Of a DNA stretch of 64,000 nt, positions 10,048 through 56,020 are shown piece after piece. The notes under the pieces were generated by a model that did not search any database, was not told the DNA's origin, and was given only the letters and a program-made list of their open reading frames with translations. Where the stretch lies: IMG/VR virus record IMGVR_UViG_3300042878_001497, positions 109,416-173,415 of that record; one strand, given 5' to 3'. The translations under genes were made by a program, and so were the position numbers. Source of the stretch: a virus. Every line of letters starts with the position of its first letter. Within the stretch, counting starts at the first letter, position 1.

Positions 10048-10431
10048 ATGAAGCTTATCTCTGCTCTTCTTTCGGAATCTAAAAGCGGTATCTTTGACGG
10101 TAAAACTTACCTTGATGATGCTACTTCGGCTATGGAGTTTGAGAAAGGGTACGAGGCCTTAGCTAGATTTGTTCATCCTAGACTAGTTATCAAAAAAGGC
10201 CACGATCCCGATCTAAAAATGGATTTAACCATAGCTTATGAAGAGCCTTCGGATTTACACTTTAGGTATATCGAGACTACGGGAGAATTTTTCTACGATG
10301 AAAAAATCTTCAAAGCAATCCTTCAGACCCCGGCCGTAAGAGAGAAACTAGGTAAGCTTTGGAATATCTCCCCGGACCCGGTAGAGGTATTTCGCCGCTA
10401 CGGTGCTGTTACAACTAAACTATCAGCGTGA
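10048..10431 (+). CDS. putative head-packaged (internal) protein
   Basis: N-terminus MKLISALLSE; late motif TATTTATA at 10031. Confidence 0.55.
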   Translation: MKLISALLSESKSGIFDGKTYLDDATSAMEFEKGYEALARFVHPRLVIKKGHDPDLKMDLTIAYEEPSDLHFRYIETTGEFFYDEKIFKAILQTPAVREKLGKLWNISPDPVEVFRRYGAVTTKLSA

Positions 10432-10856
10432 AAGCTCTACCACCTGCCTTTCTATCGATCTTCGATTACGATGATCAGGATGACCTTAGTAAGGAGGGGT
10501 TTACTAAGGCGGTGATCGATTACACCCAGCATCCGTACATCATTTTCGGTACCGTGATCAAATGCGTTGAGAACTTCTTTATCATTAATGAGATGTACCG
10601 TAAAAAATACGGAGAGAGATATCAATCAATTGAGCAGACCGTGCGAAAGACTTACTTTGATAGAGTATTCACTTACCTAGAAAGATTCGATGAGAGTAGA
10701 TATGAGCATATAGTAGAGGCTAGAAAATTTACTCCTCAGGAAATTGCCTTTGCTATGGAGGAGTTAAGAGATCACTATGAGGGTATTGAAGAGTATGAAA
10801 GATGTGCACGAATCCAAAAGATTTATAATATTTTAGCAGTAGAAGTTGCTTCTTAA
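10428..10856 (+). CDS. hypothetical protein with C-terminal UVR-like motif
   Basis: YEGIEEYERCARIQK. Confidence 0.6.
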   Translation: MKALPPAFLSIFDYDDQDDLSKEGFTKAVIDYTQHPYIIFGTVIKCVENFFIINEMYRKKYGERYQSIEQTVRKTYFDRVFTYLERFDESRYEHIVEARKFTPQEIAFAMEELRDHYEGIEEYERCARIQKIYNILAVEVAS

Positions 10857-10899
10857 GCATTTACTTACTATCTTTAAGTATCAATAAAAAATAAAGGTT

Positions 10900-11103
10900 A
10901 TGCTTAGTACGATCATTTACTACATCATTGTAGGAGTTACTTTTAACTTCCTATGGGATTTTGTTGTCTCAAAGACTCGAAAAGAGGAAAACCGTTTCAC
11001 TATGTTAGAGCGTATTATCGTGACTATTATCTGGCCGATAACTATACTCTTCTTTATCTTTATTTTAGCTAGGAATCTATTTTTCGGTAACGATCAAGAG
11101 TAA
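10900..11103 (+). CDS. small two-TM membrane protein
   Basis: Two hydrophobic segments; own early promoter. Confidence 0.7.
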   Translation: MLSTIIYYIIVGVTFNFLWDFVVSKTRKEENRFTMLERIIVTIIWPITILFFIFILARNLFFGNDQE

Positions 11104-11106
11104 GTT

Positions 11107-11736: not shown

Positions 11737-11917
11737 ATTTGCGGGGCGGCTTCGTGCGCGGCGCGGCGCGTGTGAAAACTTTTTTATAAAACAGTTGTTT
11801 CGCATTGATTTATTTCGTATATTTGAAACGAAGGGGAGGAAAAAAAGGGGAGAGTAAAAATATTATATAGATAATATTAGTATATTATATATAAAGATTA
11901 ATAATTATTAAGTACTT

Positions 11918-12100: not shown

Positions 12101-12102
12101 CT

Positions 12103-12840: not shown

Positions 12841-12842
12841 AA

Positions 12843-13112: not shown

Positions 13113-13115
13113 CCT

Positions 13116-16454: not shown

Positions 16455-16880
16455 ATGAAAGCTAGTGAATTTAAAAGTCTAATTAAAGAAGCTGTAAGAG
16501 AAGCTATCAGAGAAGAACTTTCTGAAATGAAAGCTCCCGCTCCTATGCAGACTGAAGCTACAGCACCTGCACCTAAGCCATTACAATTCTCAGGAGGAAA
16601 TCCTCTTATGGAAGCCCTTAATATGACTAGCCGTTCTATGACTTCGGAAGATTACCGCAGCATGGGAACAGCAACAGCTAATATGGCTGAAATGTTTGAT
16701 AGAGGCGCATTCACGCCCAGGCAGGCCTTCAAACCAGTCTCTGAAGATCCTAGAGCAGTAGCTCAAGCTGTAGCCGCCGCCCCAAAAGTAGGGCTAGATC
16801 TATCCCAGTTGAGCTTTGTTAATAAAGCAGCAGCAATTGTAAAGCAAGCAAATAAGAAGAGAGATCCATATGGCGTATAA
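16455..16880 (+). CDS. hypothetical late protein
   Basis: Late promoter; N-terminus MKASEFKSLIKEAVREAIREELSE. Confidence 0.6.
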   Translation: MKASEFKSLIKEAVREAIREELSEMKAPAPMQTEATAPAPKPLQFSGGNPLMEALNMTSRSMTSEDYRSMGTATANMAEMFDRGAFTPRQAFKPVSEDPRAVAQAVAAAPKVGLDLSQLSFVNKAAAIVKQANKKRDPYGV

Positions 16881-27952: not shown

Positions 27953-28405
27953 ATGACTGAACCTACCTGGACTTATAAGGGTAGGGGTATCACTGAGATT
28001 TCTGACATGCCGGAAGGCACTTACGGATTTATCTATCAGATTACTCACACCCCTACCAACAAAAAATACCTCGGCAAAAAAGTCGTATACTTTACCCGCA
28101 AGGTAAAACTTACTAAAAAAGAGATTGCCGAACAGACTGGTCCTGGCCGCAAGCCAACTACCAAGCTCGTTACCAAAGAAAGTGATTGGGATAGTTACTA
28201 TGGATCAAATAAAGAGTTTCTAACCCTAACTAGAACCTACCCTAAAGAAGAATTCCAGAAAGAAATCCTAGAGTTTGTATCTTCCAAAAAGATGCTTACT
28301 TACTTTGAGTGTAAATATTTATTTAAATACGATGCTATTGAGAATAATCCTTTATACTACAATGATAACATCCTAGGTAAATTCTACAGGAAAGATTTTC
28401 TATGA
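27953..28405 (+). CDS. GIY-YIG (Seg-like) endonuclease
   Basis: YGFIYQIT...KKYLGKK...ESDWDSYYGS...FQKEILE...YYNDNI. Confidence 0.8.
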   Translation: MTEPTWTYKGRGITEISDMPEGTYGFIYQITHTPTNKKYLGKKVVYFTRKVKLTKKEIAEQTGPGRKPTTKLVTKESDWDSYYGSNKEFLTLTRTYPKEEFQKEILEFVSSKKMLTYFECKYLFKYDAIENNPLYYNDNILGKFYRKDFL

Positions 28406-28941
28406 AACTAATACAAGCCCTTCTTACTGAGAGCACTTACTCTAAAATCAAAGATGCTTTTAAGAAAGCCGGAGTTACCTATGTAGGGGGAGGATCTCAT
28501 GGGGTTGTTTATAATGCACCCAATCCTGTGCCGGAATTCGGATACGAACCTAAAGAAGGCTACCTAGTAAAAATTACTCAGGATGACATCGAAATGCAGG
28601 CTATGCTCAAGGCTCAAGGTAAGAGCTTTAAATACCTGGCAAACGTTGGCAAGGCAGTGGAGATGGAAAAAGGAGGCTGGTACCAGGTTGAGAACTTAGA
28701 ACCACTACCGCAAGAATACTCTCAGGAAATTAAAAAGAACGTTCGTATATTAGATGAGTTCTTTATGGAAGGAGATAAGAGCATACTTTCAAATCTATCC
28801 CCGTACCTACAGAAGGTCTTTATCGGTGCAAGACAGGAAATGATTCAAGCCGGAGTCGACCCTGAAGATGTTGATATGTACGGAGATGATAACAACGTAA
28901 TGGCAACCGCCGACGGTCAGATAAAATTAATCGACTATTAA
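28402..28941 (+). CDS. minimal protein-kinase-like fold enzyme, putative head cargo
   Basis: VGGGSHGVVY Gly loop, LVKIT Lys, E helix, DMYGDDNNVM catalytic loop, KLIDY; N-terminus MKLIQALLTE. Confidence 0.75.
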   Translation: MKLIQALLTESTYSKIKDAFKKAGVTYVGGGSHGVVYNAPNPVPEFGYEPKEGYLVKITQDDIEMQAMLKAQGKSFKYLANVGKAVEMEKGGWYQVENLEPLPQEYSQEIKKNVRILDEFFMEGDKSILSNLSPYLQKVFIGARQEMIQAGVDPEDVDMYGDDNNVMATADGQIKLIDY

Positions 28942-28998: not shown

Positions 28999-29922
28999 AT
29001 GGAGAACCCTGTTTTATTAAACGCAGTTGAAAACGTACTCGGAAAGTCTCATAAGAGAGCTCGGGATAACTATGCTTTTAGCTGTCCGTTTTGTAATCAT
29101 CGCAAACCTAAGCTAGAGGTTAAACTCTCGACCAACGAGAAGGGGGAAAATCCATGGGAGTGCTGGGTGTGCAATACCCGAGGTCGTACCATTAAATCGC
29201 TTCTAAGACAGATGAAGCTTTCAAGAGAGGAAGCTAATGAAGTGCTTAAGTACGTTAGAAAAGGAGAGACAGCTGACTACGAGGTAACGTTTGTAGAACT
29301 TCCTAAAGAATTTCAAGCACTAGCTACTGCCTCTCAGACCTCAGTAATTGCAAATAAGATCAGAAACTACCTCTACAGGAGAGGTTTGACAGAGAACGAT
29401 TTTATTAAGTATAACATAGGCTACTGCACAACAGGAGAATATGCCGGTAGAATTATCGTACCTTCATACGATGATAATAATCAGCTAAACTTCTTTGTTG
29501 GTAGAACATTTGAAAATAGTTATTTTAAATATAAGAATCCTTCTGCATCCAAGGATATAGTAGGGTTTGAAAATATGATTAACTGGGACCAGCCCGTCAT
29601 CTTGGTTGAAGGAGTCTTCGATGCCATGGCTGTTAAACGTAATGCCGTTCCAATCTTAGGTAAATCTTTATCTAAGAGTTTATTAATGAAATTAGTGTCT
29701 AACAAGGTTCAAGACATTTATATAGCGTTGGATAAAGATGCTTTAAAAAGTGCGCTACGATACTCTGAGCAATTCCTTGCTATGGGTAAAAGAGTGTTCC
29801 TTGTTGACATGGTCGATAAAGATCCTTCCGAAATGGGTTTTACTAATTTCACCCACCATATCCAACAATCCCAGGAGCTAACCTTCAGCGACCTCCTAAG
29901 ATACAAATTAGCATTCGTATGA
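28999..29922 (+). CDS. DNA primase (Zn finger + TOPRIM)
   Basis: CPFC...ECWVC zinc finger; KYKNP; LVEGVFDA; ALDKDA; DKDPSE. Confidence 0.9.
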   Translation: MENPVLLNAVENVLGKSHKRARDNYAFSCPFCNHRKPKLEVKLSTNEKGENPWECWVCNTRGRTIKSLLRQMKLSREEANEVLKYVRKGETADYEVTFVELPKEFQALATASQTSVIANKIRNYLYRRGLTENDFIKYNIGYCTTGEYAGRIIVPSYDDNNQLNFFVGRTFENSYFKYKNPSASKDIVGFENMINWDQPVILVEGVFDAMAVKRNAVPILGKSLSKSLLMKLVSNKVQDIYIALDKDALKSALRYSEQFLAMGKRVFLVDMVDKDPSEMGFTNFTHHIQQSQELTFSDLLRYKLAFV

Positions 29923-34510: not shown

Positions 34511-35071
34511 ATGGGCAAGTTAGCTGACTTACTACTTACTGAAGAGGAGCAAAATCCAAAACCAAAAGGCAAACTATTCTGTGATATGGATGGCGTGCTT
34601 ACGGATTTTGTAGGCCGCTTTGACCATTACTTCGGTATGCATCCAAACGAGTACAAGGAGAAAAAAGGTGACGGAGGCTTCTGGAGCGTCATTGCACCTA
34701 TCGGTCAGATCTTTTGGGAAGGAATGGAATGGACCCCGCACGGCCTACAGCTATGGGAACACATTAGAGATTTTAACCCAACTCTCTTAACTGCCCCCTC
34801 TGAAGAACAGTCTTCAAGAGACGGTAAGGTAGAATGGGCAAATAGGGAATTAGAACCTATTCCTCCGATCATCTTCCGTCCGGCTAAAGAAAAGCATCTA
34901 GAGTGTACAGGACCCGATGATATCCTAATCGACGATAGGGAAGATACCATTCAGAGATGGATAGATGCAGGAGGTGTAGGAATCTACCATCCAGAAAACG
35001 GAGACCCATCCAACGTTATTATAAGATTAGAAAAGTTAGGTTATGTCAAGCCATCTGAAGAAAGAATTTGA
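34511..35071 (+). CDS. HAD-family 5'(3')-deoxyribonucleotidase-like
   Basis: LFCDMDGVLTDF, LLTAP, GKVEW, ILIDDR...W...GGVGI; N-terminus MGKLADLLLTE. Confidence 0.88.
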   Translation: MGKLADLLLTEEEQNPKPKGKLFCDMDGVLTDFVGRFDHYFGMHPNEYKEKKGDGGFWSVIAPIGQIFWEGMEWTPHGLQLWEHIRDFNPTLLTAPSEEQSSRDGKVEWANRELEPIPPIIFRPAKEKHLECTGPDDILIDDREDTIQRWIDAGGVGIYHPENGDPSNVIIRLEKLGYVKPSEERI

Positions 35072-35615: not shown

Positions 35616-35635
35616 CTATTTATAAAGAAACTCCA

Positions 35636-36565
35636 ATGCTTTTAACTGAGTCAAAAGTTACTGCGGTATTAACAGAAGGTCTTCGCTACCATTTGCAGAC
35701 CGGTACTCCCTTATACGAGAACATCTACCGTCCAGGATCAGAACAATACTTTACTACCATCCGTCAGGCACGTCTTCTTATGAATGAAGGTCTACTACGG
35801 TGCCTCTGCCTAGAAGATATGGAACTTCTATTTGAAACCGAGGTAGGAGAGTACGCAGAGTTTGAAGGCAAGCAAGTACCTTTAGATTTCCCAATGATTG
35901 GAGAAATTAGCTTTATAATTCCGGATGCAGAAGCAACCTGGCAGCAAGCCTCTACCAATCCTCAGATCCAGAAGATGGGTGAGGAGCAGTGGAAGAAGCT
36001 TTCCGACATCTCAAAAGCAGCCGGAGGATTTGGATATACAGCCAAATACACAGACATCGATCCAGTGATGGCTGATCTATCAGGAGAAGAAACAGTTACT
36101 TTTTCAGACGACGATCAAATCCAGATGCCAGTAGTGCTTAAGTACCAGGAAGCCGGTCAAGTAAAATACGAAATCGTAGTAGGAGAAGATATCCTACATA
36201 GCCTCATTTCTTCAGGCAAGGATACAGACCCGGACATCTGGGTAGTTGATATCACAAGCGAGGCTCTAGCAGAGGCTAAGTACCGTGGATCAGAAGTAGC
36301 TCTAAACAAACCCAAAAGAGGAGGACCTAAGAAATTCTACGTTTATACTCGTAACCCTAAGACAGGAAAGATCATCAAAGTCAACTTCGGAGGTACTACA
36401 GGACTGACTGCCAAGATCAACAATCCTGAAGCACGCCGGAACTTCGCCAGCCGTCATAACTGCGCTACTAAAAACGACAAAACCAAGCCCGGGTACTGGT
36501 CTTGCAGACTACCAAGGTACGCCAAGCTTATCGGACTCAAATCAAGCTTTGGAGGATTCTGGTGA
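35636..36565 (+). CDS. modular late protein with basic C-terminal Cys/His domain (DUF6321-like)
   Basis: MLLTE...; after ALAE comes KPKRGGPKKFYVY...NPEARRNFASRHNC...PGYWSC. Confidence 0.6.
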   Translation: MLLTESKVTAVLTEGLRYHLQTGTPLYENIYRPGSEQYFTTIRQARLLMNEGLLRCLCLEDMELLFETEVGEYAEFEGKQVPLDFPMIGEISFIIPDAEATWQQASTNPQIQKMGEEQWKKLSDISKAAGGFGYTAKYTDIDPVMADLSGEETVTFSDDDQIQMPVVLKYQEAGQVKYEIVVGEDILHSLISSGKDTDPDIWVVDITSEALAEAKYRGSEVALNKPKRGGPKKFYVYTRNPKTGKIIKVNFGGTTGLTAKINNPEARRNFASRHNCATKNDKTKPGYWSCRLPRYAKLIGLKSSFGGFW

Positions 36566-37143: not shown

Positions 37144-37286
37144 TGGCTAAGATCAAGTCTCAAGCGGTCTCAACATTCCAGGACAGGCCGAAGGTCAGCA
37201 GACCGGGGGTACATTCTAAGACTAAGACTTCAGTTCTAAAAACTAGCAAGAACTACACCAAGAAGTACCGTGGCCAAGGTAAGTAA
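37143..37286 (+). CDS. 47-aa basic peptide ending KKYRGQGK (not in ORF track)
   Basis: TAATG overlap; MAKIKSQAVSTFQDRPKVSRPGVHSKTKTSVLKTSKNYTKKYRGQGK. Confidence 0.7.
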   Translation: MAKIKSQAVSTFQDRPKVSRPGVHSKTKTSVLKTSKNYTKKYRGQGK

Positions 37287-37293
37287 ATCTGCT

Positions 37294-37467
37294 ATGCACG
37301 CTTTTATGCGAGAGCTACTCCTAGAGGTAATCAAGGAGAAGCCCGGACTATGGGCTAATATCCGTGCACAAAAAGCTAGAGGAGAGAAACCTTCTCACCC
37401 AAACAGTAAAGCTTTCAAAGATGCTGTTAAGGCTGGAAGAGAGATTCTTAAAAAAGAAAAGAAATGA
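37294..37467 (+). CDS. small basic protein, putative head cargo
   Basis: MHAFMRELLLEVIKE then KPGLWANIRAQK; start revised to 37294. Confidence 0.6.
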   Translation: MHAFMRELLLEVIKEKPGLWANIRAQKARGEKPSHPNSKAFKDAVKAGREILKKEKK

Positions 37468-37685
37468 AACTAATAGACCTCCTCTTAGAAGAGAACAACC
37501 CGGAAGATAAAGTTACTTTTGATATTCCCTTATTCATCAGACTTCTAGAGTACGCCAGAGAAGACGCCCAGGCAGACGTAGATCTACACTTTATGGCCGA
37601 TAACGCTATCAGACTCTCTGTAGAGGGTGAAACTCTAACAATGGATCATTACGATCAAATCGTTAAGCAAGATGAAGCTAAGTAA
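37464..37685 (+). CDS. small protein, putative head cargo
   Basis: MKLIDLLLEE; DIPLFIRLLEYAREDA. Confidence 0.6.
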   Translation: MKLIDLLLEENNPEDKVTFDIPLFIRLLEYAREDAQADVDLHFMADNAIRLSVEGETLTMDHYDQIVKQDEAK

Positions 37686-38085
37686 ACTCATCAGCGAAGC
37701 AGAGGTTAAATGTCCTCCTGCCACCCAAAACATCGATCTCAATCTTGAGAACAGACAGAAAGCCATTGACGAATACGGATACGGCCCTGCTGACCCTTCC
37801 CAGAAGAACGAAAAATTCTGGAAGAAGAAAATGGATATGTGGCAGGTCGATACGGCTGAAGAGCTTAAGAATATGGTGTGCGGTACTTGTGCTGCCTTCG
37901 ATATTACTTCTAAGACTTTAGACTGTATCGCTAAGGGCATCGGATCAGACATGGGTTCGGAAGATCCTTACGATGTTATTGATGCCGGTCAGCTTGGTTA
38001 CTGCCGCTTTTTAAAGTTCAAGTGTGCAGCTGCTAGAACCTGTGACGCCTGGGTGATCGGAGGCCCGATCAAAGATAAGGAGTAA
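37672..38085 (+). CDS. Cys-rich metal-binding protein, putative head cargo
   Basis: MKLSKLISE; CGTCAAF...GYC...KC...TCDAW. Confidence 0.65.
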   Translation: MKLSKLISEAEVKCPPATQNIDLNLENRQKAIDEYGYGPADPSQKNEKFWKKKMDMWQVDTAEELKNMVCGTCAAFDITSKTLDCIAKGIGSDMGSEDPYDVIDAGQLGYCRFLKFKCAAARTCDAWVIGGPIKDKE

Positions 38086-38297
38086 TGAAAAAATCTGAAT
38101 TCCAGAACTTGATTCAAGAGCTAGCAGCAGAAGTGCTAACAGAAGGAATTCACGATCCTATGAATCCTGGCATTCTCAAAAAGAGGTTAGGTAAGCTTTC
38201 ATGCTCTAAAGTAAGAGCGGCTAGAGGAAAACTTAAAGATAAAGGTACTACATATGCTAAAGCCCTGCAGAGGTACCTTAACTATCACTGTCAGTGA
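38085..38297 (+). CDS. small basic protein, putative head cargo
   Basis: MKKSEFQNLIQELAAEVLTE followed by a basic domain. Confidence 0.6.
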   Translation: MKKSEFQNLIQELAAEVLTEGIHDPMNPGILKKRLGKLSCSKVRAARGKLKDKGTTYAKALQRYLNYHCQ

Positions 38298-38549: not shown

Positions 38550-39434
38550 ATGAAGCTACAGGAAAGTATTATGAGCGATTTGGATGCTCTTGCAAGAGAG
38601 TATTCAGATGTAGAGGAGTACATCCTAGCAGCTTTTTCAGATAAGTACTTTAATCTTAAGAAAGATAAAGACACCATTGAGTTTTTAAGGATTATTTTTG
38701 ATAATGCACACAAGGACCTAGACATGGCTCCTATGCAAGTAACCGAGAAAAAAGCTACATACTGCGGCAGATGCGGACACACTCACGTTAAAGGAACTCC
38801 TTGCCCAAGACCTTTTAAAGAAGGGTTATCACCTTACGGCGATGATGCATACTTCGTAGTACCAAACAAAGGAAAGATGAAAAAAGAAGATATTTTAAAA
38901 GCTATTAAAGAAGTACTAGCTGAAAATACAGTACAAGTCAGCAAAATAACCGGCCGTACTGGAGAAACAGAAGTGGATGTGGTAACACCTAAGCAGAAGG
39001 CAGAGTTAGAAAAAGCTGGTGCAAGAGTCACCCCAATGGAGGAAGACCTAGATCTAGGACACCAGGATGACGAACCGCATATGATCAAATCAGAGCTTTA
39101 CAAGATTGCTAAATACGCTCTTGAGCTCTACAAAATGGTTGATCAGTTTGAAGGTAAAGGAGAAGTAGATTTTCCGGCCTGGTGGCAGTCTAAAGTCACA
39201 AAAGCATCTTCGATGGTTAGCAGTGCCAAGCACTACCTTGAGTTCGAACTAGCTGAACCGGCAATGGATCAGGCAGTAGTAGGCGATGAAATGCCTGTTA
39301 CAGAAAAACTAGACCCAGTCGGCCACGAAGATGAGGATGTTGATAATGACGGTAAGAAGAATACCAAAACCGACAAGTACATCAAAAACAGAAGAGTAAA
39401 GATCGGTCAAGCAATCGCAAGTCATAAGAAGTAA
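38550..39434 (+). CDS. modular internal-head-like polyprotein
   Basis: Short modules separated by [LVMF]xE sites: CGRCGHTH..PC, DFPAWWQSKVTKA, EDEDVDNDGK. Confidence 0.55.
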   Translation: MKLQESIMSDLDALAREYSDVEEYILAAFSDKYFNLKKDKDTIEFLRIIFDNAHKDLDMAPMQVTEKKATYCGRCGHTHVKGTPCPRPFKEGLSPYGDDAYFVVPNKGKMKKEDILKAIKEVLAENTVQVSKITGRTGETEVDVVTPKQKAELEKAGARVTPMEEDLDLGHQDDEPHMIKSELYKIAKYALELYKMVDQFEGKGEVDFPAWWQSKVTKASSMVSSAKHYLEFELAEPAMDQAVVGDEMPVTEKLDPVGHEDEDVDNDGKKNTKTDKYIKNRRVKIGQAIASHKK

Positions 39435-39997
39435 TGAAGCTACAGGATCTAAGACATATCATCGAGGAAGCCTATCTTGAGGTGCTAATTGAAGCAGCTG
39501 AAGAACCAGCTACCGGTCCTAAGAGAGATCAAACGGACCCGACACTAGATATTCTTCAAAAATTTCCTACCTTACAGAAGACGTTAACACATTTGTTAAC
39601 TTCCCAATATATGGAATTTGTAGAAAAGGTAGGATGGATGTCACCCAAACCTTCTACGTTTAAGGTCGAATTTAAATCCGGACAGGATATGACCTTAAAG
39701 TGGATGGGTAAAAACTTTGAAGCCAATATTGAAGGCAAGCGCTACTACCTAGCCAACCTTCCGGAATTCCAGCAGGCATTAGACAAGATCGGAATGATGC
39801 TCGCACACGGTCCTATTCAGACAGGAATGGATGCATTAGGAGGAGAAGAAGGAGCCGGAGGCGATGTATTCGCCGGAGCCGGAGCACCTGAACCCGCAGC
39901 CGGAGCAGAAACAGGAGCTGAAGCCGGTGCTGGAGCAGGAGCAGAAACACCCGCTACACCAGCCGCAGGAGAAGAAGACGTATTTGCAGGACTATAA
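39434..39997 (+). CDS. hypothetical late protein
   Basis: MKLQDLRHIIEE...VLIE leader; Ala/Gly/Glu low-complexity tail. Confidence 0.6.
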   Translation: MKLQDLRHIIEEAYLEVLIEAAEEPATGPKRDQTDPTLDILQKFPTLQKTLTHLLTSQYMEFVEKVGWMSPKPSTFKVEFKSGQDMTLKWMGKNFEANIEGKRYYLANLPEFQQALDKIGMMLAHGPIQTGMDALGGEEGAGGDVFAGAGAPEPAAGAETGAEAGAGAGAETPATPAAGEEDVFAGL

Positions 39998-45349: not shown

Positions 45350-46204
45350 ATGAAAATTAAGCATTCAAAGTATAAAAACACTGGCCTTATTTTTGAGCTA
45401 TTGGTAAAGCAGATCGCTGCCGATACTCTATCGAGGAAAGACTCCCCGGCAGTGAAGGTACTCAAGAAGTTCTACACAGGAAAGACATCGCTAGTTAGAG
45501 AATTTAAACTCTACGAATACATCCTTAAGAACAAAGGAGTATCCCAGCCCAAAGCCGACACCATCGTCTCCACTATCATCGAGATCTCTAACAAGTTAGA
45601 TAGAACTGCTATCAAGAAGCAGAAGTACGATCTTATCAAAGAGATTAAAGAGTCTTACGACCTAGAGGAGTTCTTCTCTATGAAGGTCCGGGACTATAAG
45701 CCGTTAGCTGCTCTGTACTGCTTGATGGAGACTCAAAGCTCTGAAGATCTCGCTGATCCTAAGTTCATCGTCGATAACAGAGTTACTATTCTAGAGCACT
45801 TGACTGCTAAGAAGCAAAATGAGGTTGACGTAAAAGATGCACTAATTGAAGAGTACGCAAAATACGATAAGGACTTAAGACTCCTTACCTACAGAATTCT
45901 ACTTGAGAAGTTTAACGGCGAGTACGAAAACTTCCTACCTGAGCAGAAAGCAATCCTTAGAGAGTTTATCACAGCTTCTGAATCTCAGGTTAAGTTAAGA
46001 AATATGATCAACGAAGAATTAGAGAAGATCTCTAAAGAAGTTGAAACTTTGAAGGCTAAAGTAAACGACGAGATTGTAAAAATCAAGCTTGACGAAGTAC
46101 ATAAGATTATCAAACCTTTAGATAAGAAGACTCGTATCGACGATAATCATATTGTTAATTTGTTGCAATACTACGAATTAGTAAATGAGTTAAAGTCAAT
46201 ATGA
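45350..46204 (+). CDS. head-module protein (putative prohead core)
   Basis: Lies between portal and protease; late promoter; helical. Confidence 0.5.
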   Translation: MKIKHSKYKNTGLIFELLVKQIAADTLSRKDSPAVKVLKKFYTGKTSLVREFKLYEYILKNKGVSQPKADTIVSTIIEISNKLDRTAIKKQKYDLIKEIKESYDLEEFFSMKVRDYKPLAALYCLMETQSSEDLADPKFIVDNRVTILEHLTAKKQNEVDVKDALIEEYAKYDKDLRLLTYRILLEKFNGEYENFLPEQKAILREFITASESQVKLRNMINEELEKISKEVETLKAKVNDEIVKIKLDEVHKIIKPLDKKTRIDDNHIVNLLQYYELVNELKSI

Positions 46205-46419
46205 AAAAGAGCGAATTCATCGAAGTACTAAGAGAGCTCATTCAACAGGAGCTCAACGAGGTGAACGTAACAGGAGCTATTGCACCTATCACAACTCCTT
46301 TCGCTTTTTCAAAAGGAAAAAAAGACAACAGAGCCGTTAAGACAATGAAGGGCTTTGGTTACACTAAAGCAGAAAGACCAAAGAGACCCTCACACACTAA
46401 AATGTTTGATTTCAAATGA
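46201..46419 (+). CDS. small head-module protein
   Basis: MKKSEFIEVLRELIQQELNE leader, then TPFAF. Confidence 0.55.
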   Translation: MKKSEFIEVLRELIQQELNEVNVTGAIAPITTPFAFSKGKKDNRAVKTMKGFGYTKAERPKRPSHTKMFDFK

Positions 46420-47276
46420 GAACACTACAGGAAAAATATAATGCTGTTCTAGAAGGAAACTTCTCAAAAGAGCAATTTAGGAGAGATGCAGTTATGCAGC
46501 TTCCTAACGTTGTTTCTAAGTTTAACAGCTTTGAAGATATGACAGCCATCCTCAAGAACAGAGGTATGATTGCTGAAGCTAAAAAAGAAGAAGTAACAGC
46601 CTACAAAAAGCCAGAAGTAGATCCTATCGATTTAATTGCCCCGGACCTTTTAGATGACGGCATCAGAGCTGAACTAGAAGCTAAGGGCATCGAAGGAACT
46701 CCTTCTGAAGAAGAGTACACAAAAGCAAAAGAGAAAGCAGCTAAGAATCTAGCAAAAGATCCTCTTCATTATAAGAATGCCCAGACCATGCCTGAGATGG
46801 GTGAGAAAATGGAGAAAGCAAAGCTTCAAGAAGGTGACACTCAAAATACTTTCTTAAGAGACCGTGAAAGACTAAGAGATGAACTTTCAGACAAGGAAGT
46901 AGCTGCTGCAGTAGCAGATGAGCCTAACAATGTAGGTAAAGCATTCAGAGATATGGTAATGCAAGAGCCTGAGACGTATGTGAAAATGTCTAAAGACGAG
47001 CTTATTGCTGCTTTCAAAGACTACAAAGAGAACTACTACATCGATCAAGAAGCTCAAGAGCGAATGGATGCTATTGCAGGTCAGCCTGACTTCCAAGAAG
47101 GAGCAGAAGACGTTAATGTAGATGATTTTGAAGCTAACAGAACCAATACTAGAGATTTCGCTTCAAGCCATCCAAAAAAGAAAGACGACGGCACTTACGA
47201 CATCAAAGACATAATGAAAGAAGCCCAGCTCAAAGAAGCAGTAAAGGCTTTAATTAAGAAGACTCTAGAATCATAA
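46416..47276 (+). CDS. acidic head-module/internal protein
   Basis: Several LxE-type sites (TLQE, VLE, IAE, LQE, LKE); located in the head operon. Confidence 0.55.
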   Translation: MRTLQEKYNAVLEGNFSKEQFRRDAVMQLPNVVSKFNSFEDMTAILKNRGMIAEAKKEEVTAYKKPEVDPIDLIAPDLLDDGIRAELEAKGIEGTPSEEEYTKAKEKAAKNLAKDPLHYKNAQTMPEMGEKMEKAKLQEGDTQNTFLRDRERLRDELSDKEVAAAVADEPNNVGKAFRDMVMQEPETYVKMSKDELIAAFKDYKENYYIDQEAQERMDAIAGQPDFQEGAEDVNVDDFEANRTNTRDFASSHPKKKDDGTYDIKDIMKEAQLKEAVKALIKKTLES

Positions 47277-47278: not shown

Positions 47279-47857
47279 ATGGCAAATCTCTTAATTGAAT
47301 ATACCCCCTTCCGTCCTACGATCACCGAGTCCGTCAAAAGACCCGGTATCTTTGAGGTGACAGGTGTTATGCAGAGAGCCGGAAAGAAGAACCAAAACGG
47401 AAGAATCTACGAAAGAGCTATCCTCGATAGAGAGGTTAAGAAGTACATGGAAGCTTTCGTTAAAGTAGGTAACGCATACGGTGAACTAGATCACCCAGAA
47501 TCTCCAATTGTATCACTAAAGAATGCTTCACACGTTGTGAAGGATTTATGGTGGGATGGAGATGATCTAATGGGTAAGGTTGAGCTACTCAACACCCCGG
47601 CCGGTAACATCGTAAAAGAAATCATCAAAGGCGGACACACAATCGGTATCTCTTCTAGAGGTACAGGTTCAGTCCAGCCAATTGGTGAGAACACCCTAAT
47701 GGTTAAAGACGATTTTGAATTGGTGTGCTGGGATTTCGTATCGAATCCTTCTACACACGGAGCATTTCTAAACCCCGTCTCTTTAAATGAAACAAAGCAA
47801 GTTGTAGACCGCTACAGCAAGCTTCATAACATTATCGGAGACATTTTAAGAGCATAA
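47279..47857 (+). CDS. gp21: prohead protease (T4 gp21-like)
   Basis: NQNGRIY, GELDHP, ASH, TPAG, GISSRGTGS, DFVSNPST. Confidence 0.96.
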   Translation: MANLLIEYTPFRPTITESVKRPGIFEVTGVMQRAGKKNQNGRIYERAILDREVKKYMEAFVKVGNAYGELDHPESPIVSLKNASHVVKDLWWDGDDLMGKVELLNTPAGNIVKEIIKGGHTIGISSRGTGSVQPIGENTLMVKDDFELVCWDFVSNPSTHGAFLNPVSLNETKQVVDRYSKLHNIIGDILRA

Positions 47858-47880: not shown

Positions 47881-48177
47881 ATGGAAAACTTTGATTTAAA
47901 AAAATTCTTAGTAGAGAATAAGCTTACTGATAATTCTAAGGAATTATTAGAATATGATATTAAATCGACCGGTGAGGAAGAAATTATCTACGAAGTAGAG
48001 GTACTTGATGAAGACGGTAAAATAAAGTCCTATACTAAACTTAGCGCCGAGAAGTTTGACCTGTACATAAAAAATAGCCCCCTACCAGTAACAATCAAAT
48101 TCAAAAACAGAACAGTAAGAGCTGTTACGAAAATCACAGGAGTCACTGACGATATGGGTCGTCCGATGAACCTATAG
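47881..48177 (+). CDS. hypothetical head-module protein
   Basis: MENFDLKKFLVENKL...LLE leader. Confidence 0.55.
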   Translation: MENFDLKKFLVENKLTDNSKELLEYDIKSTGEEEIIYEVEVLDEDGKIKSYTKLSAEKFDLYIKNSPLPVTIKFKNRTVRAVTKITGVTDDMGRPMNL

Positions 48178-48679: not shown

Positions 48680-50035
48680 ATGGCTAACAAAGATTTATTT
48701 AAGCAGGCTATTGCCGATGCTAAGTCTATTCGTGAAGCTGCCATTGCTAATGCTAAACTTGCTTTGGAAGAGTCTCTAACTCCTCAATTGAAAGAGCTTC
48801 TAGCTCAACGTCTCGCTGAGATGGAAGAAGAGGAAGCACCTGCCGCTGTAATTTCTGAAGAAGAAGTAACAGAGGAAGTAGCTGAAGAGTCTCTTGAAGA
48901 AGCAATCGGACCAGACGGCCTACGGGCTGTTGCCGAAGCAGAAGAAGAAGGCGCTGAAGAAGAAGGCGAAGAAGAAGGTGAAGAAGCTGGCGAAGAAGCC
49001 GAGGGTGACTCTGAAGAATCAGAGGACGAGGCAGAAGAAGAGGTTGGTGAGATGAGCGTTGATGACCTTAAGGACTTAATCCGCGACGTACTTATGCAAG
49101 TAATGGGCGACAAGGAAGCAGGACAAGAGGACGAACTAGAGGCTGGTGCTGAGGAAATGGGTGCTGAAGATATGACCGCTGTAACTGATACAGAGATCAA
49201 TATCGACGAACTTATGGCCGAGCTAGCTCTTATCAATGACCCAGAAGGACCTACAGCACACGGTAACATTCCGGAGGCTAAGAAAGAAGCAGATCCACTT
49301 GCTGAAGCTGCAGTAAACGAATTAATGGGCTACCTAAAAGCCGAAGTTAAGCAGACTGTAGGTGCTTTTGCTGAACGCAAAGGTATGACTCTACAAGAGG
49401 TGATGACGGAGATGGCTAAGTACGGTGCATCCGTTGATATGAAAGAAGTTGCTAAGATGCTTGAAGCTGCTCACGGATTAGGTGAGGCTGCTTGCAACAG
49501 AGTAATGGAAAGACTTATCACAACTCCTGTAGCTACTGCTCCCGCAATGGAAGAAAGCGCTGAGGATGTAATTGAAAAAATTAAAAGTATGGGCAAAGAC
49601 GCTGCTAAAGCAGTCGTTAAAGCAGTTACTGATTTTATTGACTACACACCACTTGATCCAAGAAACCGATACGAAAGCGCTGACATACAGGAAGCTCTAT
49701 CTACCATCGAAACTCTCCGTAACGAATTAAACGAGACTAACTTGCTTAACGCTAAGTTACTCTACGTAAACAAAGTGTTCAAGGCTAACAACTTGACTGA
49801 AGGTCAGAAAGCAAACGTAATCGCTACTTTCGATAAGGCTGAAACAGTTAAGGAAGTTAAGCTAGTATACGAAACAGTTAGTAACAACGTTACTGCTGGA
49901 GGTAAGAAAGAAGTAGTGAAGGAAGCCAAGGGCTTTGCTTCAGCTGCTGCAGGAATCTCTACCAAGCCAGAAGTAATCACTGAAACTAATGCGGCTGTAC
50001 TGCGTATGCAAAAACTTGCAGGTATTATTAAATAA
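48680..50035 (+). CDS. gp22: prohead scaffolding/core protein (gp22-like)
   Basis: Acidic coiled coil with many LxE sites, directly upstream of MCP; ends RMQKLAGIIK; start revised to MANKDLF. Confidence 0.8.
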   Translation: MANKDLFKQAIADAKSIREAAIANAKLALEESLTPQLKELLAQRLAEMEEEEAPAAVISEEEVTEEVAEESLEEAIGPDGLRAVAEAEEEGAEEEGEEEGEEAGEEAEGDSEESEDEAEEEVGEMSVDDLKDLIRDVLMQVMGDKEAGQEDELEAGAEEMGAEDMTAVTDTEINIDELMAELALINDPEGPTAHGNIPEAKKEADPLAEAAVNELMGYLKAEVKQTVGAFAERKGMTLQEVMTEMAKYGASVDMKEVAKMLEAAHGLGEAACNRVMERLITTPVATAPAMEESAEDVIEKIKSMGKDAAKAVVKAVTDFIDYTPLDPRNRYESADIQEALSTIETLRNELNETNLLNAKLLYVNKVFKANNLTEGQKANVIATFDKAETVKEVKLVYETVSNNVTAGGKKEVVKEAKGFASAAAGISTKPEVITETNAAVLRMQKLAGIIK

Positions 50036-50052: not shown

Positions 50053-51630
50053 ATGGAATTAAATTCTCTTTTAAACGAATCAGCACAGGGCTTCAAGTCT
50101 CTGCAAGCTGATGCTGCTAGACTCGCTGACAAGTGGTCTGCAACTGGTCTTCTTGAGGGTCTTGGCAACGAGATCGACAAGAACAATATGTCTATGATCC
50201 TTGAGAACCAGGCAAAACAAATCATCAAGGAATCCAACGCTACCAATGCTAACGGCGGAGCCGAGCAGTGGGCTGGTGTTGCTCTACCGCTTGTAAGAAA
50301 GGTATTCGCTCAGATCGCTGCTAAAGATTTCGTATCTGTACAGCCTATGAACCTTCCTTCAGGTCTTGTATTCTATCTTGACTTCAAGTACGGTACTACT
50401 GCTAACGGAAGAACTGACGGTGACAATATGTACGGTAACGTATCTACTGCTAACAACAAGATGTCTGTAGACGAGGAAGTTTCTGGCGGCCTTTACGGTG
50501 CTGGTCAATTCGGCTACACTATCAACTCAGCTTCTTTAGCTATCACTCAATCTACTGGTGCTGCTACTTCAGCTTCTATCGGATACCGTGACGAACTAGC
50601 TGGAACTTTATTCAAGACTGTATCAGTTTCTGCTGCTAGCTTCACAGCCCCAGATCTTAAGGGTGTAAGAGCTTTCCGTCTTCGTTCTGGTTCAACTGAC
50701 GTAACTAACTACCCAGAATTCACTACTTACGACGGTACTAACATTATCTTCGTAGTTAAAGCTAGCGACCTTTCTGTAACTGGAGAAATCACTGGATCAG
50801 TAATGTACCACAAGCAGCCTACTGACACTACTAGAGGTGACTTCGAATTCACTGGTGGTGTTGACGACAGAAGCCCAGCTATCCCTGAGATCAACGTATC
50901 TCTTGCTTCTGAGGCTATCGTTGCTAAGACTAGAAAGCTTAAAGCTCAATGGTCTCCAGAATTCGCTCAAGACTTGAACGCTTACCACAGCATCGATGCT
51001 GAGGCCGAGCTTACCTCACTTCTATCAGAGTACATCTCTATGGAAATCGATCTTGAGCTTCTTGACATGCTTATCCAAGACGCAGTTACTACTGAGCGTT
51101 GGTCAGCTGAGAACAACAAAGTGTGGAATGCCACTACTGGCTTGTGGTCTACTGCTACTGCAGACTTCTACAACACTCAAGGTCAGTGGTTCCAAACTCT
51201 TGGTACTAAGGTCCAGAAGGTGTCTAACAAGATCCACCAGAAGACTCTACGTGGCGGTGCAAACTTCCTAGTAGTTTCTCCGACTGTTGCAACTATCCTC
51301 GAGTCAATCCCAGGATATGCTGCTGATACAAACGGAGACAAGATGGACTTCGCAATGGGCGTACAGAAGGTAGGTCAGCTTAACAGCCGCTTCCGCGTAT
51401 ACAAGAACCCATACATGACTGAGAACGTAATCCTTATGGGCTACAGAGGTTCACAGTTCCTAGAGACTGGTGCGGTTTACGCTCCTTACATCCCTCTAAT
51501 GATGACTCCATTAGTGTACGATCCTGCTAACTTCACTCCAACGAAGGGCATCATGACTCGTTACGCTAAGAAGATGATCCGTCCAGAATTCTACGGTAAG
51601 ATCTACGTTTCTGACGTAGCTACTATCTAA
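50053..51630 (+). CDS. gp23: major capsid protein (T4 gp23-like)
   Basis: LPLVRK, VSVQPMNLPSGLVFYL, AKTRKLKAQWSPEFAQDL, YAPYIPL, FTPTKGIMTRY. Confidence 0.97.
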   Translation: MELNSLLNESAQGFKSLQADAARLADKWSATGLLEGLGNEIDKNNMSMILENQAKQIIKESNATNANGGAEQWAGVALPLVRKVFAQIAAKDFVSVQPMNLPSGLVFYLDFKYGTTANGRTDGDNMYGNVSTANNKMSVDEEVSGGLYGAGQFGYTINSASLAITQSTGAATSASIGYRDELAGTLFKTVSVSAASFTAPDLKGVRAFRLRSGSTDVTNYPEFTTYDGTNIIFVVKASDLSVTGEITGSVMYHKQPTDTTRGDFEFTGGVDDRSPAIPEINVSLASEAIVAKTRKLKAQWSPEFAQDLNAYHSIDAEAELTSLLSEYISMEIDLELLDMLIQDAVTTERWSAENNKVWNATTGLWSTATADFYNTQGQWFQTLGTKVQKVSNKIHQKTLRGGANFLVVSPTVATILESIPGYAADTNGDKMDFAMGVQKVGQLNSRFRVYKNPYMTENVILMGYRGSQFLETGAVYAPYIPLMMTPLVYDPANFTPTKGIMTRYAKKMIRPEFYGKIYVSDVATI

Positions 51631-52818: not shown

Positions 52819-54035
52819 GTTTAACAGTACAGGTTAGCGGAACCGACTTATCAGTATCTCAAACAGGTACTACCGCAGTAACAGTATCGTCTACAGGAAT
52901 TGTTGGAGCTACTGGAGCTACAGGTGTCCAAGGTGTACAAGGTACAACAGGTAACCAGGGCGTACAGGGAATACAAGGTATACAAGGAACCCAAGGAATA
53001 CAGGGTAACAACGGTACAGGAACCCAAGGAATTCAAGGTACTTCAGGAACCGGCACTCAAGGAATTCAAGGTACACAAGGTACATCAGGAGCAAGTGACT
53101 GGAACAGTATCAGCAGCAAGCCAGCCGGACTAGTATCTGGATCTTCCCAGATCAACGGTACACAGATTACAAATAACAGTATTGCTCTAGGAAATACCGG
53201 TATTAGTTTAGGAAACACTCCTTCTTTTCCGTTTTATATCAACGGAGTTAGTTTAGTAGATTCTACAGCTACAGGATCATTTACAGGGTCTTTTAAAGGA
53301 GATGGATCAGGACTTACTGGAATAACAGGAACATCTGCATTTCCATACTCAGGAACAGCTCAAATCACAGGATCGTTAGAGATACTTAACACAGGATCTA
53401 ATGCCATCACAACAACCAGTGACGGAGGTATTAAAGTTGTAAGACATTCAAGCGCTTTTGGATTCCCGAACACAGCATGGGGCGGGTATTTATACCCGTT
53501 AGTTGCTAGATCGCTATACAACCAAGCCGGCAGTACCTTCGGAACAACTAAAAACCCGGTAGTATTACAGCCACTCAGCACCGCCCAGGACATTGCACTA
53601 GCGACCGTAAACCACGGAGTAAACGTATTTGTTTCTGCAAGTAACGAAATTTATTTAGGATTCGGTAGTAATTCTCCTGCAAAAAACTATATAAGAGACT
53701 TACTAGTAATGAGCGGATCATTACAGGGAAGTGTCAGTCCGCTGACTATAACTTCTTCTACTGCGTCTCTAAATATGTCTGCATCAAATTTCTTCACTTT
53801 GCAACTAGCAGCAGGAAGTAACACACACGTTAATGTTAGTGGACAGCAACCAGGACAGACAGTAAACCTTAGAATCAACACAGGAGGTTCAGGAACAGTA
53901 ACTTTTAACTCAGCTGTTAAACAAGTCAGCGGCTCAAGCTACACTCCTACAGCCGGAACCGGAGTTGACATTGTATCCCTTATTACATTCGATTCTACCG
54001 ACGTATATTTAGCTAACGTTAAGAACCTGATTTAA
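52815..54035 (+). CDS. fibre protein with short collagen-like segment
   Basis: GATGATGVQGVQGTTGNQG... followed by beta-rich domains. Confidence 0.7.
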   Translation: MSLTVQVSGTDLSVSQTGTTAVTVSSTGIVGATGATGVQGVQGTTGNQGVQGIQGIQGTQGIQGNNGTGTQGIQGTSGTGTQGIQGTQGTSGASDWNSISSKPAGLVSGSSQINGTQITNNSIALGNTGISLGNTPSFPFYINGVSLVDSTATGSFTGSFKGDGSGLTGITGTSAFPYSGTAQITGSLEILNTGSNAITTTSDGGIKVVRHSSAFGFPNTAWGGYLYPLVARSLYNQAGSTFGTTKNPVVLQPLSTAQDIALATVNHGVNVFVSASNEIYLGFGSNSPAKNYIRDLLVMSGSLQGSVSPLTITSSTASLNMSASNFFTLQLAAGSNTHVNVSGQQPGQTVNLRINTGGSGTVTFNSAVKQVSGSSYTPTAGTGVDIVSLITFDSTDVYLANVKNLI

Positions 54036-54514
54036 TGTTTGTTCCGTTTGCATTTAGGCAACAGCCAGCACCGGTACAGGTTATAACCCCGCCAATCGGA
54101 CCTACGTTTTCACAACTCTTTACTCAAAACCAGGCTCCCTCTACCGCAGTTGAGACAGCATGGAATACTTTTAGAGCAAGCTTAACAGGTACGTACACCT
54201 CCTTTACATGGTCTAGTACTAACGGCAATAGCTTAACTGTCACACATCCAACTCACGTACAGACTCTAGCAAACGGACTGAGGAACGCAACCAACGGAAC
54301 TGTAGTGGCAATTGATACAGTTTTTTGGAGAGTTGGGACTGGGTGCGGAACCCCGAAAATCGGCGGAGTAGCTGTTGAGTTCTCGAATACTGCTTCCTGC
54401 AGTGCTACTAGTACCTACGCTTTGAGACCTATGATTAATAATCAGAACTGGGGTGGTACAAATGAATACACTGTTAACGCCCCTACACAGACGATAACTT
54501 TGACTTTTTTCTAA
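54035..54514 (+). CDS. small fibre-associated beta protein
   Basis: Translationally coupled to the fibre gene; Thr/Asn-rich with two Cys. Confidence 0.5.
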   Translation: MFVPFAFRQQPAPVQVITPPIGPTFSQLFTQNQAPSTAVETAWNTFRASLTGTYTSFTWSSTNGNSLTVTHPTHVQTLANGLRNATNGTVVAIDTVFWRVGTGCGTPKIGGVAVEFSNTASCSATSTYALRPMINNQNWGGTNEYTVNAPTQTITLTFF

Positions 54515-54566
54515 AAGGTACTCATACACAGTAGGTGTACAAAGTTGCTATTTATAAAGAAAAAGC

Positions 54567-55709
54567 ATGGCTGACGTAACAATCTGGACCGGTACTAGTA
54601 CATTCTTTCCAGGAGAAACACCTTTTGGCTTTTATGACAGCGACACACAGTTTCAAGCTGATGCCGATAAGGTAGCTTCATTTTGTGCCACCCGCTTAGG
54701 ATATCCTCTGATGGATGTAGAGCTTCAGGCTAGATCTTTTTATGCCTGTTTTGAAGAAGCAGTAACAACTTACGGCAACGAAGTATTCCAGTATAAAGTA
54801 AGAGAGAACTATCTCTCAATGGAAGGAGCTTCTTCAGCCGGATCTTTTAATAACACCTTAGTTCAACCTTCATTAGACAGAGTAATTCAAATCTCTCAGA
54901 ACTACGGTACTGAAGCCGGTGTTGGAGGAAGTATAGAGAAGTACTCTGGACTATTACAGCTTTCCTCTAGCGTACAGACTTATGATTTAGACGCATGGGC
55001 AACATCACAAGGCATCACCGGAGGAATTGAAATTGTAAAAGTTTACTACGAAGCACCTCCTGCAATCCTTCGCTACTTTGACCCGTATGCAGGAACCGGT
55101 ACCGGTATCCAATCTTTAATGGATGCATTTGACTTTGGTTCATACTCACCAGGTATCAACTTCCTTTTAATGCCAGCATACTATGATATGCTGAAAGTAC
55201 AGGCAATCGAGTTTAACGATCAGATTAGAAAATCTTCTTATAGCTTTGAATTAATAGGAAACAAGCTTTCAATCTTACCAGTTCCTAGAGAAAGACTAGC
55301 AATCAGAATTGATTACTTCAAGAGATCAGAAAGAACAGCTGCAGTATCAGGTTCAGGAGCAGGTCTAATTACCAACGTAGGAGAAGTTCCTTACGATAAC
55401 CCAACCTACACAGGAATCAACTCAGTAGGTCGTCAGTGGATCTACCGGTATGCTTTAGCTCTATCAAAAGAACTTTTAGGATATATCAGAGGAAAGTACC
55501 AGCAGGTACCGGTTCCGGGTTCAAACACAACCCTAAACCAGGCCGATCTTCTTACAGATGCTAGAACAGAAAAAACTGAATTGCTTACTCAATTAAGAGA
55601 CATGCTTGAGCAAACCTCAAGACGTAATCAGCTTGAAAGAAAAGCTAACGAAAGTGAATTTATAAAAACAACACTTCAGAGTGTTCCAATGACTATCTTT
55701 GTAGGATGA
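54567..55709 (+). CDS. gp13: neck/head-tail adaptor (gp13-like)
   Basis: RLGYPLMDVEL...; QWIYRYALALSKELLGYIRGKY...VPG..TTLN... Confidence 0.85.
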   Translation: MADVTIWTGTSTFFPGETPFGFYDSDTQFQADADKVASFCATRLGYPLMDVELQARSFYACFEEAVTTYGNEVFQYKVRENYLSMEGASSAGSFNNTLVQPSLDRVIQISQNYGTEAGVGGSIEKYSGLLQLSSSVQTYDLDAWATSQGITGGIEIVKVYYEAPPAILRYFDPYAGTGTGIQSLMDAFDFGSYSPGINFLLMPAYYDMLKVQAIEFNDQIRKSSYSFELIGNKLSILPVPRERLAIRIDYFKRSERTAAVSGSGAGLITNVGEVPYDNPTYTGINSVGRQWIYRYALALSKELLGYIRGKYQQVPVPGSNTTLNQADLLTDARTEKTELLTQLRDMLEQTSRRNQLERKANESEFIKTTLQSVPMTIFVG

Positions 55710-56020
55710 TTACACTAGAGCAGTTACTAAGCGAGGTAGAATTTAGGATGTACAAAACGTACGTATACGTTGAGTTCAATCCCGAGACAGATATTACTAC
55801 TGTCGCACAGCTTATTAGAAGCGTAGACAAGGTTGCAGTTGTAAACAATAAATCGAATAAGGAAGACCCTAGACCTAGAGGTCTGCTATTGATTAAAATT
55901 ATTACAACTAAGCCAGCCCTTGAGACGTTCCAAGAAGTTCAGAAAGCAGCAATGACTGCTATTCCTGATCTCAAAAAATTTCAATTCTCTGAACGCCACA
56001 TAGAACAGTCAGAGATATGA
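55706..56020 (+). CDS. hypothetical protein, putative head cargo
   Basis: N-terminus MITLEQLLSE. Confidence 0.5.
   Translation: MITLEQLLSEVEFRMYKTYVYVEFNPETDITTVAQLIRSVDKVAVVNNKSNKEDPRPRGLLLIKIITTKPALETFQEVQKAAMTAIPDLKKFQFSERHIEQSEI

Follow-up and report, generated by a model that had tools for sequence, protein, structure and literature searches.

We analysed a 64,000-nucleotide stretch of viral DNA (positions 109,416 to 173,415 of IMG/VR record IMGVR_UViG_3300042878_001497, hereafter the window), in which many otherwise unrelated proteins begin with a similar short peptide ending in (L/I)-x-E, referred to here as the leader. The window is part of a 102-kb viral contig with a CheckV completeness of 63%, carries all of its genes on the + strand, and contains no tRNA genes. 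Its major capsid protein shares 74% identity with that of Flavobacterium phage vB_FspM_immuto (immuto), 55% with that of Microcystis phage Mel-JY01, and 37% with that of Rhodothermus phage RM378. At the DNA level, a megablast search with the region of the candidate cargo genes returned no match to named phages. The source is a T4-like phage of aquatic, Flavobacterium-type (Bacteroidota-type) bacteria. Scanning IMG/VR with the terminase matched at least 596 relatives, and 80 loci were retained for leader counts; these relatives form a large, abundant, and uncultured clade.

Leader peptides on late genes

The leader-bearing genes outside the head module are listed below; the arrow marks the position after the Glu of each (L/I)-x-E motif.

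10048..10431, +, 127-aa orphan, start MKLISALLSE↓S; begins 17 nt after CTATTTATA
16455..16880, +, 141-aa basic protein, two-site leader MKASEFKSLIKE↓AVREAIREELSE↓M; first gene of an operon with gp25-like and baseplate-J-like genes
28402..28941, +, 179-aa minimal protein-kinase-like protein ending at a DFG-like IDY, leader MKLIQALLTE↓S
34511..35071, +, 186-aa predicted HAD 5'-3' deoxyribonucleotidase, leader MGKLADLLLTE↓EE, then a variable linker and a CDMDG catalytic motif
35636..36565, +, 309-aa protein, start MLLTE↓SKVTAVLTE↓G, C-terminal phrog_7595; begins 19 nt after CTATTTATA
37294..37467, +, 57-aa very basic protein, start MHAFMRELLLE↓VIKE↓KPGLWAN; start corrected from GTG 37270
37464..37685, +, 73-aa acidic protein, start MKLIDLLLE↓E
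37672..38085, +, 137-aa Cys-rich protein, start MKLSKLISE↓A
38085..38297, +, 70-aa basic protein, two-site leader MKKSEFQNLIQE↓LAAEVLTE↓G
38550..39434, +, 294-aa zinc-ribbon protein, start MKLQE↓S; weak, short leader
39434..39997, +, 187-aa protein, two-site leader MKLQDLRHIIEE↓AYLEVLIE↓A, then a conserved domain of ~95 residues
39997..41157, +, 386-aa protein, conserved N-domain of ~41 residues (MNLIDKVIEE↓W...NLTE(41)↓A), then a hypervariable body
55706..56020, +, 104-aa neck-region protein, start MITLEQLLSE↓V; weak candidate

A first-pass annotation of the window had proposed that these N-termini represent one shared leader, and every N-terminus that it listed was recovered at its coordinates except the one at 37294. 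A leader is present there, but the ATG at 37294 reads MHAFMRELLLE, and the reported MRELLLE would begin at 37306; orthologues (MKNFRQALKELQEEKPGLWAN) favor this ATG over the GTG at 37270. The second class that it had described, MK(K/A)SEF..LIxE at 16455, 38085, and 46201, was also found, as was the start MELNSLLNE of the major capsid protein.

We scanned for [LIVMF][LI]xE (hydrophobic-(L/I)-x-E) ending at or before residue 13 and took the internal rate of the motif as the expectation. The pattern occurs in 18 of the 144 open reading frames (ORFs) of the contig, against 4.1 expected, and a stricter L[LI]xE in 12, against 1.5 expected. The anticipated enrichment in late genes over other genes was borne out: 16 of 67 ORFs in the structural half (window position 10000 onward) carry a leader versus 2 of 77 elsewhere on the contig (Fisher p = 2e-4). 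Both of the latter lie immediately upstream of the window, and a copy of the promoter-like motif TATTTATA is found 60 nt before the first one. The 80 relatives contain a leader in 161 of 723 ORFs, where 32 would be expected. In 961 ORFs from the phage and its relatives, motif ends peak at residues 10, 12, 13, and 16, with 35–93 hits each, over a baseline of ~4 per position beyond residue 25.

Leader codons vary among genes (CTT/CTA/TTA/CTC for the hydrophobic residues and GAA/GAG for Glu), so the similarity lies at the protein rather than the DNA level, and a DNA-level element such as a translation enhancer or recombination box was rejected for the same reason. The sequences indicate that selection acts on the leader peptide. 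Signal peptides were also rejected, as the leaders bear little resemblance to the genuine lipoprotein and signal sequences encoded elsewhere on the contig.

The architecture of the leader was examined in 52 de-duplicated examples from the phage and its relatives, aligned on the Glu (P1 = E). P4 is L, I, F, V, or M in 52/52 and P3 is hydrophobic (L/I/F), while P7, six residues before the Glu and outside the search pattern, is L or I in 33/52. A, V, or S usually comes next after the Glu; in this genome, S or A follows the Glu at 7 of 19 N-terminal sites versus 7.6% of internal sites (p = 3e-4). Three leader classes can be distinguished: MKLxxLLxE; a two-site form of ~20 residues, MK(K/A)SExxLIxE...LxE (16455, 38085, 46201, and 39434); and MENFDLKKFLVE, found on 47881 and four immuto proteins. 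The bodies of the tagged proteins are unlinked by BLAST after removal of their first 25 residues, and across relatives the leader is kept at the extreme N-terminus even where linkers have gained or lost residues, middle domains have been inserted, or C-terminal bodies have been swapped. About fifteen non-homologous late proteins share this conserved peptide, anchored at the N-terminus. Sequence searches of Pfam, PHROGs, and PDB gave no match for most of these proteins. Several of the orphans are small and basic (37294, 38085, and 46201; pI about 10), like the internal proteins of T4.

In the more distant relative Mel-JY01, the scan flagged only three proteins in the first 50 kb. The sole clear MKL-type leader among them, MGKLINILLSE, begins a 639-aa protein annotated as cytidylyltransferase-like (L082:11243-13162, +). 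The idea that a leader had moved between genes of the 31654 operon was dropped, as this 639-aa protein is not similar to window gene 31654 by BLASTP.

Tagged families, enzymes, and head proteins

The orthologue families provide the strongest argument for reading these N-termini as leaders. Among 45 unique relatives of 39997, mean pairwise identity is 52% in the N-terminal part versus 17% in the body, and the junction [LIV]xE has its Glu in 44/45. The bodies fall into at least 10 types unlinked by BLAST, and neither 39997 nor ten bodies of its family has a Pfam match. The 39434 family, also with 45 relatives, ranges from 165 to 707 aa, with unrelated, variable middles and the ~95-residue domain at the C-terminal end. 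Nearly all of its members start with the two-site leader, and the few that do not were called as ORFs with an extended or fused N-terminus. Two orthologues of 37672 with a 27-residue insertion still have the leader (MKIIKLIKDLVLE↓G) at the very start. The only orthologue of 55706, in immuto, starts MRKLVNE↓V, and no orthologue of 10048 was found in the sampled loci.

One relative encodes a 379-aa ORF (L011:7673) in which a full leader, the zinc-ribbon of 38550 (CGRCGHTHVKGTPCP), and the conserved domain of 39434 are fused in one protein. The adjacent genes 38550 and 39434 may be a split form of that protein, or the latter may be a fused form of the two.

The first-pass annotation had named a kinase, a nucleotidase, and a nuclease as enzymes of the tagged set. 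For 28402, no sequence match was found in Pfam, PHROGs, or PDB, and an Atlas search yielded no more than a weak lead, with Phage_T7_kinase on 17% of rank-26 cluster members. The AF2 model (pLDDT 86.6) returned 45 Foldseek hits against PDB at E <= 1e-3; the hits listed all have the kinase fold, one of them a pseudokinase, with TM scores of 0.39–0.47. G29/G31/G34, K57, E64, D162, N165, and D178, the counterparts of the Gly-loop, Lys, Glu, Asp/Asn, and DFG-type Asp, are invariant in the family, and the predicted structure supports a protein-kinase-like fold. The protein stops after a DFG-like "KLIDY", without the C-lobe that normally lies behind the activation loop. Because all 12 homologues end at the same place, 28402 appears to be a natural minimal form and not a truncation. 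Residues 1–8 and E10 of the leader are invariant in these 12 homologues, and one homologue with 42% identity and a 6-residue insertion directly behind the leader has kept it. A gene for a SegE-type GIY-YIG homing endonuclease (27953-28405, +; PF19835, 1e-25) lies directly upstream and overlaps the start of 28402, and the kinase-like gene may therefore sit at a mobile insertion point.

The nucleotidase assignment stood. Gene 34511 matches phrog_2643 at 2e-23, with the profile alignment beginning at residue 19, and has no Pfam hit at E <= 0.01. C24-D25-M26-D27-G28, which includes the DxD motif, is invariant in 12 orthologues, and by these sequence criteria the protein is a predicted 5'-3' deoxyribonucleotidase. 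The pattern x(L/I)x(D/E)L(L/F)(x)E is conserved in all 16 orthologues, followed by a linker to CDMDG that is variable in both length and sequence. In its AF2 model (pLDDT 87.3), residues 1–20 score 54–65, and values exceed 90 from residue 22, where the fold starts; in that of 28402, residues 1–8 are coil with values < 50, and the domains of the two models score above 85–90. The leader is thus placed outside the predicted folds of both proteins.

No recognizable nuclease was found among the listed leader proteins, and this part of the earlier claim is doubtful. The only nuclease with an N-terminal LxE is a PD-(D/E)XK / Cas4-like protein (29919-30701, +) encoded in the primase operon. Its N-terminus, MIY.G.N(V/F)LxEH, is conserved in three orthologues and fits LxE without the P7 hydrophobe, and 29919 is a doubtful candidate for a leader-tagged nuclease.

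The head module has the same gene order as in immuto:

41833, +, large terminase
43441, +, portal, PF07230
45350..46204, +, 284-aa scaffold- or core-like protein with 15 L/I-x-E sites; TATTTATA lies 27 nt upstream
46201..46419, +, 72-aa basic protein at the position of T4 gp67/gp68, leader MKKSEFIEVLRE↓LIQQELNE↓V
46416..47276, +, 286-aa protein, start MRTLQE↓KYNAVLE↓G
47279..47857, +, prohead protease of peptidase family S77, T4 gp21 homologue
47881..48177, +, 98-aa protein, third leader type MENFDLKKFLVE↓NKL; same start in four immuto proteins
48680..50035, +, scaffold-like acidic protein (ORF 48656) with 15 L/I-x-E sites; likely start ATG 48680 (MANKDLFKQ...SIRE↓A)
50053..51630, +, major capsid protein of the Gp23 family, start MELNSLLNE

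The gp21 homologue that had been placed at 47279 was confirmed by matches to PF03420 (6e-31) and PDB 5JBL, T4 gp21 (1e-18), with the His and Ser motifs GELDHP and ISSRG aligned. H72 and S125/S126 are invariant in 16 orthologues, and the catalytic His and Ser are intact. E17 ([IL]xE↓S) and L169-x-E171, the latter ~20 residues before the C-terminus, are invariant in the same set. These conserved sites near both ends recall T4 gp21, which has its LIE-9 site and for which C-terminal processing has been discussed, and L169-x-E171 would fit the C-terminal self-processing proposed for T4 gp21 and shown for giant-phage proteases. A complex prediction for 47279 (A2) with 28402 (A1) gave a score of 0.00, which is neither for nor against binding.

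The PF07068 match of the capsid protein (2e-81) begins at residue 71, and its L/I-x-E sites fall at residues 9, 35, 51, and 60, four in the first 60 residues, with the next at 279. Its orthologues start ME(L/I)NxLLE↓S. Such an arrangement points to a propeptide like that of T4, about 60 residues long and cut at several places. The 45350 protein has 5.3 L/I-x-E sites per 100 aa versus a genome mean of 1.2. For 46201, there are 47 hits in the sampled loci, and the N-termini displayed read MK(K/R)SE..LVREV..ELDE↓ANVTG. The tagged proteins 45350, 46201, 46416, and 47881 are more likely core components than cargo.

Probable head targeting and its alternatives

In phage T4, a capsid-targeting sequence (CTS) on IPI, IPII, IPIII, and Alt, as well as the short propeptide of gp24, is processed by gp21 (Mullaney and Black 1996, as reviewed in PMC9026906, PMC3012670, and PMC5694885). 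Residues 4 and 7 of the CTS govern targeting and residues 8 and 10 processing; Asp at position 10 stops cutting but not targeting, and the two functions are separable (PMC9026906). To calibrate our scan, we applied it in identical form to 140 kb of NC_000866. It found the pattern in 16 of 226 ORFs, against 6.8 expected; of these hits, nine or ten belong to the head or prohead. Established substrates of gp21 account for seven: IPII and IPIII (MKTYQEFIAE), gp24 (MAKINELLRE), Alt, gp21 (MNEPQLLIE), gp22, and gp68; gp2 and alt.-1 are found beyond these. In a phage where the answer is known, the hits are mainly true substrates. Two T4 starts were recorded alongside: hypothetical protein gp61.1 (L084:18966-19130, -) begins MKTFKEFIKE, near-identical to the internal-protein targeting sequence, and the DNA-end protector gp2 (L085:31061-31885, -) begins MAIFQIINE↓S.

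The resemblance to T4 extends to several levels. Both phages have N-terminal leaders of 10–19 residues ending in (L/I)-x-E, with hydrophobic residues at ~4, 7, and 8 and Glu at ~10, the spacing of MKTYQEFIAE. Both encode a homologous S77 protease, carry the same sites on the capsid protein, scaffold, and protease, and place one leader on unrelated cargo bodies, at least one of which is an enzyme (Alt in T4). The phage described here differs from T4 in having no fewer than three classes of leader, both a nucleotidase and a kinase-like protein among its candidate cargo, and one family (39997) with a ~41-residue conserved N-domain ahead of swapped bodies. In addition, its host is of Bacteroidota type and its capsid protein only distantly related to T4 gp23. 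The earlier claim of a larger cargo than that of T4 holds in part: the same scan gives an excess of about 14 ORFs versus about 9 in T4, but this difference is modest and several of the tagged proteins are probably core or scaffold rather than cargo.

Propeptides of head and ejection proteins are likewise cut by gp21-like proteases in the giant phages phiKZ, 201phi2-1, and SPN3US (PMC5694885, PMC7411985, and PMC10052503). There, too, a gp21 homologue cuts many inner-head proteins behind a Glu, diverged paralogues share conserved N-termini, and a role in prohead targeting has been proposed for the propeptides. Most of these propeptides exceed 100 residues, and the giant phages use (S/A/G)-x-E as their motif, in contrast to the short, T4-like L/I-x-E leaders seen here; only the 39997 family approaches a longer N-domain. 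In phage P1, an N-terminal signal of <= 30 residues suffices to load the large enzyme DarB into the capsid for delivery with the DNA; this signal has been called analogous to that of T4, and gp21-type cleavage is not reported (PMC9024508). The DarB signal differs in having no visible sequence resemblance to the leaders described here and in that P1 loading depends on other Dar proteins.

We consider it probable that the leaders are head-targeting and processing tags of the T4 type. By analogy with T4, the tagged proteins would be packaged, cleaved, activated, and injected. In such a scheme, a protein expressed from a late operon would carry an amphipathic N-terminal peptide of 10–20 residues, with hydrophobic residues about 7, 4, and 3 positions before the Glu. 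This peptide would give it affinity for the scaffolding core of the assembling prohead, and the core-bound protein would be enclosed as the shell forms. The S77 protease 47279 would then cut after the Glu of (L/I)-x-E, in the same reaction that would trim the capsid protein and break up the scaffold-like proteins. The mature body would stay in the head, and at least some of the tagged proteins would leave with the DNA at the next infection.

Several observations weigh against this interpretation. Chance would produce about 4 of the 18 hits, and 38550 (MKLQE) and 55706 are weak cases. The candidates show no depletion of internal L-x-E sites (23 observed versus 25.2 expected), whereas the three T4 internal proteins have no L-x-E beyond the leader. 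The sequence after the first site of 39997, EW(S/A)(Y/W)(K/R)..KGYPD, is itself conserved, and this site may be part of a folded N-domain and not a point of cleavage. Residue 7 of the protease is E, D, or N depending on the orthologue, which means that an N-terminal LxE need not be a site. Leaders are sparse in the head region of Mel-JY01, and a nucleotidase would be an odd protein to inject. For this phage and its relatives, a literature search returned neither a virion proteome nor N-terminal sequences nor a packaging test.

Some of these points could also be accommodated by a shared N-terminal docking helix that binds a common partner or place, such as a scaffold, an assembly chaperone, a membrane, or an oligomer, and that would remain uncut and make virion entry and injection unnecessary. 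The amphipathic character of the leader and its position outside the folds agree with such a helix, as do the undepleted internal sites and the conserved sequence behind the first 39997 site, and in T4 targeting is separable from processing, as seen with Asp at position 10 (PMC9026906). A helix alone would not need the Glu, however, and substitutions of this residue are very rare: the 28402 family has none, and 44/45 sequences have the Glu at the 39997 junction. The same motif also occurs in the capsid propeptide region, on the scaffold-like proteins, and at both ends of the protease, and S or A is favored directly behind the Glu. We judge this explanation unlikely, although it fares better than the two that follow.

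A tag for degradation or turnover would limit the lifetime of late proteins by offering a host protease an N-terminal motif, for example one of ClpXP type with Met, a basic residue, and hydrophobic residues. The published ClpX N-terminal motifs bear a loose resemblance to MK plus hydrophobic residues. No computed result favors such a tag, and it would leave the invariant Glu, the T4 CTS spacing, the motif on capsid and scaffold-like proteins, and the link to structural operons unexplained; we regard it as highly improbable. Just as little can be said for the leader as a by-product of chance, of a preference for MK plus a helix, of codon or translation-start constraints in a host without Shine-Dalgarno sequences, or of recent duplication of 5' ends. 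Chance does account for about 4 hits, and the upstream regions are A-rich and lack a Shine-Dalgarno sequence. Yet leaders are 4 to 8 times as frequent as expected, with the excess restricted to the structural half of the contig, codons differ between leaders, and the bodies remain unlinked by BLAST without their first 25 residues. The leader is also conserved in orthologues at 40–50% identity, and the preference for L or I at P7 (33/52) was not selected by the search pattern. The enrichment, codon, location, and architecture results already largely refute a by-product.

If the leader works as the CTS does in T4, it would mark orphan proteins of widespread aquatic Bacteroidota phages that are carried inside the capsid and are the first to act in a newly infected cell. 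Such proteins would be the likeliest to counter host defenses or take over metabolism, and homology cannot recognize them. The tag would also provide a straightforward rule by which foreign proteins could be loaded into phages of Bacteroidota hosts. The principle has been established for T4 since 1996 and is known also in giant phages and P1, so that it is not new here; the phage would extend it to an unstudied, abundant clade, with an unusually rich and partly enzymatic tagged set.

A further step, which we offer tentatively and would not bet on, is that the clade uses late expression and the short leader to load a swappable arsenal into the capsid, comprising the minimal kinase, the nucleotidase, small basic proteins, and the 39997 family, in which bodies are exchanged behind a conserved N-domain and LxE junction, to be injected ready-made at the next infection. 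If so, the arsenal would amount to a phage effector-delivery system organized like polymorphic toxins, and the leader would offer a sequence handle for finding injected host-takeover and anti-defense proteins across T4-like phages.

The promoter-like motif

The first-pass annotation had also claimed that the leader operons are headed by a promoter-like motif. Our counts agree with this claim: TATTTATA occurs in 24 coding-strand copies versus 1 on the other strand, mostly between genes. It heads operons with leader genes and precedes the portal, scaffold, baseplate, and cargo operons. Copies in the window are as follows:

35617..35625, +, promoter-like motif CTATTTATA
10031, 13824, 16444, 25348, 30704, and 36772, other copies of CTATTTATA
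38300, 43417, 45323, 48578, and 54549, further copies of CTATTTATA

Its placement suggests that TATTTATA is a late promoter. A counterpart of the T4 late sigma factor gp55 was not found on the contig, which at 63% completeness is uninformative on this assignment. In the early region (window 4700-9100, +), the genes 4766, 6944, 7478, 8542, and 8786, none of which carries a leader peptide, have ATGs that are directly preceded by a different common string, (A)AAAACAACAAC(G/T)GTT.

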